DNA of 64,000 bases from a phage: the sequence record PZ674596.1; one strand, given 5' to 3'. The position numbers are program-made. The stretch's first letter is position 1, and every line of letters begins with the position of its first letter. Shown here in pieces: positions 44,501 to 53,500 of the stretch.

Positions 44501-47500
44501 CTGGCTGGTGGCACGGTGCTTTATATCTCTGTTTGTCTGGATAGCAACCAAATCAATATTCTCAACACTGCGTCAGGTAAGTGGAAAGATCCGATTGTCT
44601 GTGAAACCAGTGAAGAAACTTTGAAAAAAGCGGCTCAATTTGTACGTAGCGCACTACTTAAGGGCGCTAAGAAGTTGTAAGGAGTAGTAATGGGACAACC
44701 GGTAGACATAACAGGTAAACGTTTTGGAAAGTTGGTTGCACTTAAATATTCCGGTATTTCAAACAAACAAGGGCGACTTTGGGATTGCATCTGCGATTGC
44801 GGCAACACCTGCCTGGTTAGTTACGGGAAGCTAAATCACGGGGCGACAATATCGTGTGGCTGTGTCTACAACGCACATCGCCGTAGCGTAAAGCCTCATG
44901 GTATGAGTAAAACGCCAATTTATCGTATATGGCTGGGTATGCGGGAACGATGTGAAAAACCAACCCATCACGCCTATAAGTGGTATGGCGGCCGAGGTAT
45001 CAAAGTCTGCGAGCGGTGGCAAATATTTGAAAATTTTTATGCTGACATGGGAGAGCGACCAGAGGGGATGTCTCTTGATCGCAAAGATGTGAATGGTGAC
45101 TACGAACCTGAAAATTGCAGATGGGCGACTTTTGAAGAACAGGCCAATAACACGCGTTCAAACTTAATTTTGGAGCATAAGGGGGAAAAGCTGACTCTCT
45201 CACAATGGGCTAAAAGAGCCGGGATTCAGACATCAACTCTTCACTATCGAATCAAGAAAGGGTGGCCATTAGATCGCGCGCTTAACGCCAGCGTCGACAC
45301 GTATGCCAACCGAGATAGTAAGCGTCTGATCGAGTGTCGCGGCAGAACTCAGCGAATTACCGAATGGGCTAGAGAGGTTGGCTTGACTGCGACCATTATC
45401 TCGCAGCGAATTTTGAGGGGGTGGGATGTTGAAGCTGCCATCTTCACACCGTCCAAACGACCAGTAAAAGGAGATAAAAAGTGATTGCTACAGGGGTGGA
45501 CATCGAATCAACAGGTCTTGATTTCCTCTCAGGCCATAAAATCATTGAAATCGCAATGGTGAAGTACGAAATTGAGACACAGACAATGGTTGATAGTTTT
45601 GTAATGCGGTTCAACCCGCGTCGCAGTATCGATCCGAAAGCGCAAGCGGTACACGGCATCAGTCTTGAAGATTTAGCCGCCGAGCCGTTACTAGCCGATC
45701 ACGCTTCATCTGTCGCTTCGTATCTCTCTTCTTCCGATATTTGGATAGCCCACAACGGCGAAGCGTTCGATATTCCGTTTATTAGGCATGAGCTGAAAAG
45801 TTACGGTTTTTCGCTTCCAGACATCCCATTGATTGACACTCTATTTTCCCTGTGGGCCACAGAAGACGGTAAACGTCCCCGCCTTGAAGAGTTGGCCTTC
45901 TCTCTTGGCTTTATATACGATCATGCCAAAGCACATAGTGCCTTATATGACACAAACTTAATGATGCAATGCTTCTTTAAGGCACGTAATAAGTACGGAT
46001 TTTTTAAATTACCCTCTGAAATTGTGTAAAACAAAAGCCTACTTTAAAAAGTTTAAAGTAGGCTTTCTTTTAAAGAACAGTCGCCTTTCAATCATTTCCT
46101 GCCTGTATTTAATACTTTTCCGCCTGATAGGTTTAGTCAAAATGCAGCCATCGAAACGCAAATGTAACCAAACAGAAGGAGACTTACATGAGTTCGGTTG
46201 AAAATGTAATGACAAATGATGATCTGGACGAGCTGACAGCCATGTTGCAATCACTTGATGAACCAGTAAAAAAAGCTGCACAGGTTGAAAATACTGATGA
46301 TATTGACGATCTGCTGCTCGGCCTAGATGCTGGCGTAGCCATGAGTTCTGATGATGTTGCCGAAGAACTGTTCAATGAAGAAAAAGCAGGTGATTTCAGC
46401 TCTGCTTTAAATGAGTTGGAGTTAGCGCATGAGCCTATAAACATAATTAACGCTGAAAGTGTTGAAGCTGCCGAAAACGAGCCAGAACAATTGGGATTTA
46501 TTGAGGTTGAAGAGTGTGTTGAGGTTAATGATGAATTAAAAGTTCAACAGTCAAATGATAGCAATACAAATAAAAAAGCTCGTACTGCAAGAGGTCCTCG
46601 TTTTACTTTAAGTGATAAAGATGATTCGTTTTTCAATAAAGCGGGCTTAGAAAAAGATATTTTCTTAGACGCTTACGATAACGCGCCTGTCAAAGCAAAG
46701 GATAAGATATTAAACCTTCTTAATTGGTTTAGCGGAGGTCCAGATATTAGTGTTTACACGGTAATTTCCATGAGACACCTTCTCACAGAAAAGAAGGCTA
46801 CAAGTAATAGTATTAAGATTGCTTTAATGAGCAATCCAGAAAAACCGTATCCGCTTAATACTGCGTCAACTCAGGCTGGGCAAATGATGGCTGTATTTCC
46901 AGCGACAGGAATTGCCGTTAGAGACGGTGGAAATCTAACATTGAACGAAGAATCACCGATCGTTAAGAAGTTTGTCGCGGAGTACACTATTGGATGACGT
47001 TCCCCTACTTAAAATAAAGCCCATAGAGAGCTTTATAGTACTGGGTAAGCCAATCACATACCCAGCACCACAAAAACGCGCCAGAGAGCTTCTCGTTTGC
47101 ATTTCTGGCGCGTTTTATTTGATTGCCAGACATAAAATCAAATGCAAAAATAGGTATATACTTACCTATCGAGAAAGAAGATGATTGCAGCCGAAAAAAT
47201 CAAACAGCGAAAGCGCGACAACTCTCTTCGTGACCTCTGGAGAACACCTGACTGGCTGTTTTCTGCCATTCAACGTTATCTTGGAGTGACATTTGATGTT
47301 GACGTTGCCTGCAACAAGGACAATGCAAAGCTGCCTAATTTCATAGGCGTTGAGCGTGATGCTTTGAAATCTGAATGGGGACAGCCAGGTACAATTGCCT
47401 TCCTCAATCCACCCTACTCCAAAATCTACCCCTGGATTGATGCGGCTATACGTGAGCAGGCTCGTGGAGTTACAACAGTGATGCTAATTCCTCAATCCCT

Positions 47501-50500: not shown

Positions 50501-53500
50501 CCAAATGAGCGCCAATATCCGTGCTCGTTACGAAGCGTCCCCTCGTTCTGCTAATGCACAGGCTATTCGTGAGCTGTCTGATATTGCGGGTACTCCAGAG
50601 GCGGTCGATGTTCTGTGTCTGTGCCTTGATATTGCCGATCAGGACGGCATTGGTGAACAAGAAGAGCAGGCACTGAAAAAGATCGCCCAGGCGCTTCAGT
50701 TGTCACTGGATGCTTATCTCTAATGCTTGAGAGATTCCGGCTTGTGATCGTCATTGCTCTTCTGGTGATGGCGGTGTTGGTGGATTTTACGGGAAAGATG
50801 ATGTCTGTCATTTCTGATGGCGTCCTCATTGGTCTGGCGATCTACTTCGCTTATCCGTTAGTTCGTAAAGCAAAGTGTTAATGACAAGGGCCAAATGGCC
50901 CTTGTGTTTCGTTGACCGAAATAGAGAGTTTGCACCTTTACGTTTAGCTTGCTCCCCTTTTATGCCACATCACAATAAAGCCAATAAGAAAACAACTTGT
51001 TTAAGCATTAGGAAAAACACATGTGCAAGAAATGCAAAGCGATAGCTGATGAACAAAACGCCTTATTCGAAGAAATGGATGCTAATGAACTGGTCAAAAT
51101 GTTAGCCATTCTTCGAGGAATAGAAGACGTTTCCATATTTGAGAGACTGTTTACAATACTTAATTTTAATTCCACCTTTGAAGAGCCAACTCAGATTGTA
51201 GCTTTGGCACACCATTTCGGTGTTCATTACCTTGCTGAAAAAGAGAGAGCTGATAAGTTGCAAGCGACTTTGGATATGGTGAGCGAGACTCAAGAAACTG
51301 ATGACGGTAACAAAAGTGAGACGATTATTGCCAGCAAAGATCGTGAAATTGCCGGGCTTAAATCCTCTCTAACGATGTTGATGTCTGCAATCAACCTTAT
51401 GTCTTCTAAAGCAGGTTCTAAAATGCCATCACTAAACAGCGACGATCCGATGGCCGTTCGCCAGCTTTTAGGTGCAATGGCCGACCAGCTCGACGACACA
51501 AAGAGTCGCCTTGAAGACATGATGCGGGAGCTCACGCATCGCCATGACTTGAATAAGCAGCCGCACAAAACGCAATACGCACTCTAATACAGCACCAGTC
51601 GACAGGGGGCGACAGCCCCCATTTTTACGCCTTAAATCTGCTGTAACGCCTATGAATGCAGCTTTTATGCCTTTTCAAGTTTGCGATAATTACACCAATC
51701 AGAAAACAAATTATTTAATGGTGTAATTATGAATACAGCCCTTTCCATCATCGACGATGCCAGCTCAAACACGGCTATCGACTATCGTCAGGAAATGAAT
51801 GTCATCCACGAAATCGTGGCCGAGTGCGAGAAAGAGATCGCCTTCATGTATCAGGTACACGACTTCGTTTATGGCGACGAACGCCACAACATGATTAATC
51901 GCCTGCTGAGACTAAACCATCGACCAGATGAAGATCGCTCGCGTTTAAATCGAGGTTGGTTGGATAAAGTCGATCTGGAATGGGTGAAACAGAATATTTG
52001 GGCCGAGTACTGGAGGAAGGTCACGGACATGACTAACGTTTTGCTGATCATGCCAGCTTCCCGTCGAGATGAGTGGCGCGAGCAGTTTATAGAGGGCAAA
52101 CAGGAAGTCATCAAAACTGACAGAACCGGCTACCAGATGAAGGTTAAAGAGTTCGTTGGTGTACCGGAGTTCAAAGCAGAAACGGTCATACCCACGATGC
52201 TTAATTTGCTGAATGACAGGCACAAATATCTCTCTGAGCGCGTGTATGGCTTGTTTAAGGCGCTGAGTCCTGCGCACAAGACAAATAAGACAAACGGTTT
52301 CAGCGAGCGGCTGATAATCGCTGACTGCATTTCTGATTTCTGGCGGGACAGCGTTAGCGTGAACTATCGCAAAGAGGACTACATCGACGATCTGCGTGTC
52401 TTGCTTCATTTCTTCGCGCACAAAGAATTTATTACCATCAACCGCACTGCTGAGGTGCTATCAGCTGCGTATCGGGCAAACGACTGCCAGACCGGTGACT
52501 GGATGAACGTCGATGGAAATCTGATGCGCGTGAAGATGTTCAAGAACGGCAACGTTCACTTTGAAATACATCCTGACGTGGCCTGGAAGTTGAATGAGGT
52601 GCTGGCTTACAGTATGCCTGCTGCAATCCCCGCGCCATGTCGCACCGCGCCAAAAACACGGGCACCAAAGCAGTTCGGGTTAATCCAGAAGACGATCTCC
52701 GTGCCGGTTCGCACTGCGCTTCGTGACGGGCGATTGAGCAAAGACAAAGGCGTATGGTACTTCTCTGATTCAGCTCTCCAGAAGTCGCAGGTGGAAGAGC
52801 TTGAGCGCACACTGAGCTTCATTGGCGGCGTGCAGGAGAAAAAACACTGGCAGTTCCCGTATGACATCGTCCATACGCTAAATACGATTGTGGCTACCGG
52901 ATTAATACCGGATACAAAATCACACCAGTTCTACCCTACCCCACGCTTGATTGCTGAGTACGTTGCCAGAGCCACTGAATTGAAGCCTGGTGAGAAGCTG
53001 CTGGAGCCTCAAGCCGGACGTGGGGATCTTCTGGCCTATATTAACGCCGATCTGGAAGATGTTACCTGCATAGAAATCGCACCTCTCTTCGCTGATATCC
53101 TGCGTGGAAAAGGGTATACGAACACGATTTGCTGCGACTTCATAAAGTGGTCTGAGGACAACGCAGGTTATCAGTTCGACAAAATCGTTATGAACCCGCC
53201 GTACTCGCTTGGTCGTCATAGAGAGCACACTCTGGCTGCGCTTGGGCATCTGAAAGTCGGCGGGCGTCTTGTAGCAGTATTGCCGGGCACTGCGCCAATA
53301 CTGGACTGGATGACGATGGATAATTACGTTTATGCCAGAGGGAAGTCGTTTACCAACGAGTTTGAAGACACAGGGATCACAGTCAGCGTATACGTTTTCA
53401 AACGCGTTAAATGATAGGTAAATACTTACCTAATTTGTGTAAGAATGTAGTTACTAAACGATAAGAGAAAAACACATGAACAACCTCCAGTTAGAGCATT

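Follow-up and report, generated by a model that had tools for sequence, protein, structure and literature searches.

Two genes carried by a phage-plasmid of E. coli, ORF1 and ORF2 (Table 1), probably encode solitary DNA N6-adenine methyltransferases whose likeliest role is self-methylation of the element against host restriction. The observations that bear on this are the family membership of the two products, their catalytic motifs and fold, a family-wide architecture, the lack of a nuclease partner and the location of both genes on a mobile element. The window analyzed here, 64,000 nucleotides of sequence record PZ674596.1, is from an SSU5/pHCM2-family phage-plasmid that is 99.7% identical to the 110-kb plasmid p4_0.2, and ORF1 and ORF2 are members of its core DNA-metabolism module, which also holds thymidylate synthase, DHFR, exonuclease, RNase H and HD phosphohydrolase. 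A sequence-only reading had described the two products as orphan adenine methyltransferases with no adjacent restriction gene. Both ORFs and the motifs ascribed to them were confirmed in the sequence, and the family, motif, fold and context evidence supports the orphan assignment; a restriction gene is absent not only beside them but from the whole replicon, since Pfam and PADLOC scans found no cognate restriction endonuclease among the neighbors and no restriction endonuclease is annotated across p4_0.2. Promoter and terminator scans gave results at chance level, and no Rfam families or tRNAs were found within 46.0-54.5 kb of the window.

Table 1. Coordinates in the window of the two methyltransferase genes, the segments of ORF2 and the plasmid origin
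Feature	Position	Strand	Basis
ORF1, 197 aa, small phage-type DNA N6-adenine methyltransferase (T1/HP1/VT2 'Dam' family)	47181..47774	+	Pfam, NCBIfam, PHROG, RefSeq
ORF2, 561 aa, DUF4942-domain adenine methyltransferase	51729..53414	+	phrog_6263, RefSeq, AlphaFold
ORF2 aa 1-80, acidic N-terminal helical hairpin, little conserved	51729..51968	+	models, conservation
ORF2 aa 81-305, DUF4942 core, conserved alpha/beta module	51969..52643	+	
ORF2 aa 306-395, variable linker and small alpha/beta unit ahead of the catalytic domain	52644..52913	+	conservation, PHROG
ORF2 aa 396-561, predicted Rossmann-fold N6-adenine methyltransferase catalytic domain	52914..53414	+	
Rep gene	29949-31163	minus	Rep3_N domain
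Plasmid origin core, upstream of the Rep gene	31065..31278	.	sequence, P1 alignment
Five iterons	31065-31165		
Six GATC as GGATCT-type repeats	31206-31264		
DnaA-box-like TGTGGATAT	31270-31278		

ORF1 and the phage Dam family

The ORF1 product matches Pfam PF05869 with an E-value of 2.9e-38 (131.6 bits; curated cut-off 28.1), the NCBIfam equivalog TIGR01712 with 8.4e-33 (113.2 bits; cut-off 97.05) and phrog_111 'DNA methyltransferase' with 8e-65, and its CDS is identical to that of WP_000559568.1, 'phage N-6-adenine-methyltransferase'. A catalytic NPPY that conforms to (D/N)PP(Y/F) lies at aa 76-79, with a W-R-T-P...DVDVA stretch on its N-terminal side. In its NPPY, its small size and its scores above the PF05869 and TIGR01712 cut-offs ORF1 resembles the Dam enzymes of T1, HP1 and VT2-Sa, and like them it has neither a separate recognition domain nor a restriction partner. 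The gene is kept in SSU5-like elements of Escherichia, Salmonella, Klebsiella, Cronobacter, Xenorhabdus and Providencia. Identity is ~39-41% to the dam genes of Stx-phage, lambdoid and T1-like phages and 30% to the HP1 gene; with identity to the named phage Dam enzymes thus only ~30-41%, a GATC specificity for ORF1 is a putative one, carried over from them. The Stx-phage enzyme M.EcoVT2Dam is handled as a GATC Dam homolog (PMC6602927), and judging from sequence relationship the ORF1 target is probably GATC, although ORF1 may instead methylate adenine non-specifically. The window contains 279 GATC sites where 258 ± 15 are expected, neither an enrichment nor a depletion, so its composition is uninformative on the ORF1 target.

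ORF2, its catalytic domain and its DUF4942 module

The ORF2 product aligns end-to-end with phrog_6263 'DNA methyltransferase' (E 4e-299), is annotated in RefSeq as WP_124809574.1 'DUF4942 domain-containing protein' and has SSU5_095, 'DNA methyltransferase', as its SSU5 counterpart; the mean pLDDT of its AlphaFold model is 82. Toward its C-terminus the motifs run FYPTP, EPQAGRGD, NPPY, and this X, I, IV order on a Rossmann fold is that of the gamma class. As far as sequence can tell, the last 165 residues form an adenine methyltransferase domain of the EcoKI/TaqI-like type, for which DNA is the presumed substrate. Only 69 residues separate the NPPY from the C-terminus, and they finish the Rossmann fold; the C-terminal target recognition domain that is standard for gamma-class enzymes is absent. 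M.TaqI, M.BseCI, CamA and HsdM have such a domain, whereas ORF2 carries DUF4942 within an N-terminal region of 395 residues. Two observations on the catalytic domain count against the main explanation: its score of 16.6 bits against Pfam N6_Mtase (PF02384) is under the 20.4 threshold, and, within a fold that resembles adenine methyltransferases, the top match is METTL5, an rRNA m6A enzyme.

The catalytic module together with the short unit that precedes it is also present in families of giant phage proteins (PHROG E 1e-14 to 4e-50). Residues 328-395 accompany the catalytic domain there, phrog_9133 (a 1259-aa profile) aligns with aa 328-560, and the relatives include 'DarB-like antirestriction' genes and other giant virion proteins. 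The methyltransferase module of DarB-like polyvalent proteins has been proposed to shield the element from restriction by methylating that element's DNA (Iyer et al. 2017, PMC5512222), a role like that proposed here for the module that ORF2 has in common with them, but those proteins are giant and have an SF2 helicase (and LPD36) fused to the module, whereas ORF2 is a stand-alone protein with no helicase. A Pfam scan found no LPD36 in ORF2, although the Pfam copy used may hold no LPD36 model. Nothing about ORF2 points to virion packaging. Membership of the MADS defense system was considered and rejected: the PADLOC mad2 model covers the ORF2 catalytic domain alone (aa 394-523, E 1.5e-15), and the only further match to a mad gene is a 28-residue mad1 alignment in an ORF 7 kb away. 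An identity with the single-strand-specific plasmid methyltransferases M.EcoGIX/M.BceJIII, a lead that arose from the name of one homolog ('YdiA', an IncI1 leading-region gene name), was likewise rejected. M.EcoGIX is a beta-class enzyme of about 30 kDa with a DPPY motif (PMC7736820), and ORF2 has the gamma order, NPPY and 561 aa. The M.EcoGIX/M.BceJIII enzymes, small, beta-class and without DUF4942, are thus of a different family from ORF2 (and ORF1 belongs to PF05869), but they too are solitary and borne on mobile elements and may be functional analogs.

In the N-terminal region, the terminal hairpin (helices 15-48 and 50-62 in the structure models) has conservation values of 0.16-0.33 and a mean charge of -4 across the family. 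The DUF4942 core that follows is approximately charge-neutral and highly conserved, at least as much as the catalytic domain; its residues 140-295 match PF13708 with 74.4 bits (gathering cut-off 25), and W95, H183, T185, N186, W258, H277 and N289 do not vary across 135 clusters. Conservation is weak at aa 321-360, and G366, F376, Y378 and P394 nearby are conserved. When the N-terminal 395 residues were searched, a PDB-sequence profile search and a permissive Pfam scan returned DUF4942 and nothing more, and Foldseek against viral models gave weak matches (TM ~0.36) that are likely family members; no solved structural relative of the DUF4942 fold was found, nor any experimental work on DUF4942 in the literature. 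The sequence-only reading had the methyltransferase fused to a large unknown N-terminal domain and proposed structure prediction for the latter. The region is indeed large, but it is the named Pfam domain DUF4942; prediction did give an alpha/beta model, for which there is no solved counterpart; and the word "fused" does not describe a local event. The N-terminal region is common to 614 clusters (at 50% identity), nearly all of them 510-580 aa long, and among 135 full-length representatives motif IV is kept in 132 and motif I in 129. On these sequence comparisons the joining of DUF4942 to the methyltransferase is ancestral and family-wide, old rather than a recent fusion.

Members of this family are found on phage-plasmids, in prophage early regions and on ~1,460 conjugative plasmids. 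Of these last, a single IncHI2 plasmid was examined; its homolog is collinear with ORF2 (E 3e-88) and adjoins a Dam-family methyltransferase. Elsewhere the neighbors are prophage genes and, frequently, other solitary methyltransferases, and DnaT and lambda-P occur among those in phage replication modules; there is no conserved partner gene, as across 53 diverse loci each neighbor family turns up at 6 or fewer. Some relatives carry truncated ORF2 variants; certain lineages can thus dispense with the gene, an observation that counts against the main explanation.

Since the catalytic domain comes with no other candidate recognition domain, the simplest reading assigns recognition to DUF4942, and DNA binding and target recognition for ORF2 is its most likely, though presumptive, function. 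A near-neutral and highly conserved core is atypical of a variable recognition domain and speaks against that function. It is conceivable, if unlikely, that DUF4942, as an accessory module with no structural precedent, gives this mobile-element methyltransferase family an unusual mode of action, for example a fixed or relaxed target read N-terminally, coupling to replication or to single-stranded DNA, or a second anti-defense activity.

Proposed self-methylation and its alternatives

How would two solitary methyltransferases serve this element? Self-methylation would keep its DNA fully modified while it replicates fast or newly arrives in a cell, and fully modified DNA would go uncut by the restriction systems of current and future hosts. 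Orphan methyltransferases have been reviewed as anti-restriction devices (PMC11541004), M.EcoGIX protects its element from restriction on entering a new host (Fomenkov et al. 2020, PMC7736820), and self-methylation is the standard interpretation of solitary phage and plasmid methyltransferases (PMC11541004, PMC7736820, PMC5512222). By analogy with these, an anti-restriction function of ORF1 and ORF2 is plausible; the sequences that they would modify are putative for both. No methylation data on ORF1, ORF2 or close homologs were found in the literature, and searches on DUF4942, SSU5/pHCM2 methyltransferases, phage-plasmid methylomes and IncHI2 methyltransferases found no characterization. One consideration counts against self-methylation as the role of ORF1: E. 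coli Dam already methylates GATC, which would make ORF1 redundant during lysogeny.

The GATC cluster at the plasmid origin raises a different possibility for ORF1. Between repA and upfA, phage P1 has a region with 81% identity to the origin core, whose GATC positions are invariant among Klebsiella pJN2-26, SSU5 and P1. The layout of P1 oriR is also present, with a DnaA-box-like site, GATC heptamers, iterons, rep and a second iteron array past rep, although the Rep protein and the iteron sequences differ from those of P1. Replication from P1 oriR requires adenine methylation of its GATC heptamers, a requirement known for P1 only, and the host Dam methylates them. P1 also encodes its own Dam-type adenine methyltransferase and in this is like the element studied here, a phage-plasmid with its own adenine methyltransferase; no homologs of ORF1 or ORF2 were found in P1 records. 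A suggested link between the cluster and replication control, made from the sequence alone, therefore stands as to the cluster, which is real and homologous to P1 oriR, but nothing in the sequence ties ORF1 to the origin, and such a link for ORF1 is a hint.

In its strong form this alternative holds that ORF1 mainly controls replication, methylating the P1-oriR-type heptamers so that the element and not the host Dam sets initiation and SeqA sequestration. We consider it unlikely. The invariance of the GATC sites across diverged relatives, the homology of the core to P1 oriR and the status of ORF1 as a core gene in every setting of this replicon type speak for it, but host Dam serves P1 oriR and all known hosts of SSU5-type elements have Dam. 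Moreover, a distance of 16 kb separates the origin from ORF1, which sits within the DNA-metabolism cluster; lytic and lambdoid phages with no plasmid origin commonly carry Dam enzymes of its family; SSU5, recorded as a phage, retains both the GATC core and the ORF1 gene; and the GATC specificity of ORF1 is itself putative. Rather less likely is the idea that DUF4942 supplies a second activity in place of recognition, either a new enzymatic or anti-defense function or a coupling to replication forks or single-stranded DNA. Its seven invariant polar and aromatic positions, its conservation relative to the catalytic domain, the lack of a solved structural relative and the ties of the family to mobile elements and phage replication modules are consistent with such an activity, and there is precedent in replication-coupled, relaxed-specificity plasmid methyltransferases, a coupling of M.EcoGIX with DNA polymerase I having been reported (PMC7736820). 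Against it, the Pfam, PDB-sequence and fold searches detected no catalytic signature of a known family in DUF4942, ORF2 would be left with no candidate for recognition, and one target sequence common to the whole family would give equal conservation of DUF4942.

Two further alternatives concern the chemistry of ORF2. That it methylates adenine in rRNA or tRNA rather than in DNA is very improbable: its FYPTP/EPxxGxG/NPPY motifs and its best sequence matches are those of DNA enzymes (M.TaqI, Type II models and N6_Mtase), its catalytic module is common to DarB-like proteins, its genomic neighborhoods feature DNA methyltransferases and replication genes, and the likeness of its Rossmann fold to rRNA enzymes is generic. 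We give still less credence to a single-chain restriction-modification enzyme (type IIG/IIL-like) with an N-terminal nuclease. Homologs are labeled 'RE endonuclease' in some phage records, but aa 1-395 contain no nuclease fold or family that the searches could find, ORF2 does not have the C-terminal recognition domain of MmeI/Eco57I-like enzymes, the match to the PADLOC IIG model is weak (E 1e-3) and confined to the methyltransferase part, and homologs in prophage early regions adjoin other solitary methyltransferases.

With self-methylation against restriction as the preferred role, the case is an ordinary one: both genes are already known and annotated in hundreds of public (phage-plasmid) records, and solitary phage and plasmid methyltransferases are a well-known anti-restriction strategy. 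The point of specialist interest is the role of the conserved DUF4942 of ORF2 in so large a family. If DUF4942 did confer an unusual mode of action, the DUF4942-methyltransferases would be a widespread, uncharacterized counter-restriction device. The family rides on clinically important elements, SSU5-like phage-plasmids (some with CTX-M-15) and conjugative plasmids including IncHI2. The motif of a DUF4942 enzyme, once defined, would fill a gap in the annotation of Enterobacterales methylomes, and it could partly account for the host range of these resistance-carrying elements.

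Two solitary adenine methyltransferases of a phage-plasmid

The sequence-only reading had called two adenine methyltransferase genes, here ORF1 and ORF2, and both are present with all of the motifs claimed for them (table). Their coordinates are exactly those of RefSeq genes WP_000559568.1 ('phage N-6-adenine-methyltransferase') and WP_124809574.1 ('DUF4942 domain-containing protein'), respectively, and their SSU5 counterparts are each annotated 'DNA methyltransferase'. The 6.7-kb span around them aligns at 99.7% identity with plasmid p4_0.2 of E. coli (NZ_CP023851.1), at 96-98% with phages CMS-2020a, Cyrano and PhiR41_1 and at 83% with Salmonella phage SSU5, and it matches 698 plasmid records, nearly all non-mobilizable and ~100-118 kb long; by these matches the source of the window is evidently an SSU5/pHCM2-family phage-plasmid. 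ORF1 and ORF2 are known, annotated, solitary adenine methyltransferases of that well-described family, and as such an ordinary find; what the sequence-only reading observed is confirmed, and what it made of it is borne out in part. Many near-identical plasmids (e.g. NZ_MW590712.1) carry a ~3-kb ISEcp1-blaCTX-M-15 insertion in the interval matching window 46900-53600; the window is without it, and its match to those plasmids splits into two pieces.

Locations of the genes, protein features and origin elements
Feature	Location	Basis
ORF1	47181-47774 (+)	RefSeq
NPPY	ORF1 aa 76	motif check
ORF2	51729-53414 (+)	RefSeq
Variable acidic helical hairpin	ORF2 aa 1-80	conservation profile
DUF4942 core	ORF2 aa 81-305	conservation at least that of catalytic domain
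Variable linker and small alpha/beta unit	ORF2 aa 306-395	conservation profile
Catalytic domain	ORF2 aa 396-561	conservation profile
FYPTP	ORF2 aa 401	motif check
EPQAGRGD	ORF2 aa 426	motif check
NPPY	ORF2 aa 489	motif check
Eleven further iterons, past other end of rep	29418-29949	sequence
Five iterons	31065-31165	sequence
Six GATC, GGATCT-type repeats	31206-31264 (within 59 bp)	sequence
DnaA-box-like TGTGGATAT	31270-31278	sequence

ORF1 clears the curated thresholds of both Pfam Dam (PF05869) and the NCBIfam equivalog TIGR01712 by a wide margin, and is a core gene in SSU5-like elements of Escherichia, Salmonella, Klebsiella, Cronobacter, Xenorhabdus and Providencia. Among phage genes beyond these elements, its nearest relatives are the dam genes of Stx-converting, lambdoid and T1-like phages (~38-41% identity) and the HP1 gene (30%); no solved structure related to it in sequence was found. 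Its target is most likely GATC, which we infer, identity being just ~40%, from the type of these phage dam relatives: the T1 and HP1 enzymes are GATC methylases. A published methylome study (PMC6602927) counts the Stx-phage enzyme M.EcoVT2Dam among the homologs of GATC Dam.

The claimed absence of an adjacent restriction gene also held. Pfam and PADLOC scans of the ORFs near both genes gave an exonuclease, RNase H, a TerB/TciA-like protein, an HD phosphohydrolase and unknowns, none a restriction-system nuclease, and neither a restriction enzyme nor a third methyltransferase is annotated on the full 110-kb reference replicon. Among 80 fetched loci encoding ORF2 relatives, the 53 with full flanks showed no recurrent partner: the most-repeated neighbour family reached 6/53, in closely related Undibacterium genomes. 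Larger neighbours were of prophage type (integrase, YqaJ recombinase, S24 repressor, DnaT, antiterminator Q); neighbouring methyltransferases were C5 (5 loci), Eco57I-type (3), N6_N4 (2) and N6_Mtase (2), and a self-contained MmeI-type enzyme lay nearby at two loci only.

Several local differences were seen. Immediately before ORF2 the window has just a 140-bp gap (51587-51729) with a terminator-like hairpin (51605-51620); in Cyrano (locus L002, 7748-8646) two additional small genes, one for a putative outer membrane protein and one hypothetical, are inserted directly upstream of the DUF4942 methyltransferase. Window positions 50298-50881 (+) encode a TerB-domain protein and a small membrane protein of the DUF3927 type; both are annotated P1 TciA/TciB-like in Cyrano, and in SSU5 an Ant anti-repressor gene takes their place. 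A Cys-rich 264-aa ORF (44690-45484, +) lies between a hypothetical gene and a 3'-5' exonuclease; it occurs in ~112/280 related plasmids and is missing from p4_0.2, Cyrano and SSU5, where the flanking genes abut. It matches PVL_ORF50 and mad1 (HTH-like), in each case only weakly, and resembles an inserted mobile or variable element that may be homing-endonuclease-like.

The DUF4942 module of ORF2

The N-terminal part, described earlier as of unknown function, is not wholly anonymous: Pfam DUF4942, itself uncharacterised, covers aa 140-295, and PHROG 6263 'DNA methyltransferase' matches ORF2 end to end. Nor is it a local fusion, as had been supposed. When aa 1-395 alone were searched against 1.84 billion representatives, 614 clusters matched; 135 of the best 150 were 480-620 aa long, and these kept motif IV in 132/135 cases (mostly as NPPF) and motif I in 129/135, so the architecture is family-wide and the arrangement ancient. 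W95, H183, T185, N186, W258, H277 and N289 of the DUF4942 core are invariant across all 135 clusters, and R164, R194, D221, R223, D262 and E279 nearly so. Shortened versions occur in some SSU5-like elements (homologs P0043, 461 aa, and P0046, 476 aa, and plasmid NZ_CP061757.1), which suggests that some lineages can do without the gene or are losing it.

GATC sites at the plasmid origin

The GATC cluster noted earlier is real: it lies between the five iterons and the DnaA-box-like site, upstream of a Rep3-type initiator gene, and its chance expectation is ~3e-4 per window, overall GATC frequency being as expected. The origin core is 81% identical to the P1 region adjoining repA, and the replicon (29418-31278) has the complete P1 layout of DnaA-box-like site, GATC repeats, five iterons, rep and eleven iterons. 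P1 plasmid replication is said, in work of Abeles and Austin in 1987 and of Abeles, Brendler and Austin in 1993, to need adenine-methylated DNA. The longest rep ORF, which is the RefSeq CDS, starts at 31163 (minus strand) and extends through the five iterons upstream; an ATG inside it, at ~31043 (MSTKNKKGK...), looks more likely to be the true start.

That ORF1 serves replication control through these sites is nevertheless unlikely, and the suggested link to it is unsupported. In its favour, the GATC positions, like the DnaA-box-like site, are invariant in P1, SSU5 and Klebsiella pJN2-26, among which the iterons differ; but P1 uses host Dam, which the hosts here also possess, ORF1 lies 16 kb from the origin amid DNA-metabolism genes, and phages lacking a plasmid origin commonly have a member of its Dam family.

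Protective methylation and the wider family

The best-supported reading is that ORF1 and ORF2 would shield the element from cutting by restriction systems through methylation of its DNA, that of the host being modified incidentally. Such a role is established for orphan methyltransferases in phages (PMC11541004) and demonstrated for the plasmid enzyme M.EcoGIX (PMC7736820), although the latter is of another family, beta-class with a DPPY motif; assignment of ORF2 to the M.EcoGIX type, raised by one homolog named 'YdiA', was rejected on those features. The ORF2 catalytic module and the short preceding unit also match giant phage protein families, as well as 'DarB-like antirestriction' and 'PLxRFG' genes. 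No experimental study of a DUF4942 methyltransferase turned up in literature searches; its target sequence, substrate form and DUF4942 role are matters that we infer.

Beyond SSU5-like elements the family occurs in phages of Aeromonas, Pseudomonas, Marinomonas and Vibrio, in the early and replication modules of prophages (in one, the order is repressor, YdaS/YdaT, N6_N4 MTase, DnaT, lambda-P-like, DUF4942-MTase, C5 MTase) and on ~1,460 conjugative plasmids, which are 200-370 kb in size. On pSPRC-Echo1, the one IncHI2 plasmid examined (L014, 3560-7844), a homolog collinear with ORF2 end to end is found near repHI2, with a D12-class Dam methyltransferase 1.8 kb away, and locus L007 (7655-11638) has the same pairing; thus a Dam-type enzyme is again paired with a DUF4942-type one on backbones not related to that of the phage-plasmid. 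What interest remains attaches to the DUF4942 module, which is large, strongly conserved and structurally unmatched, and is widespread on resistance-carrying mobile elements.
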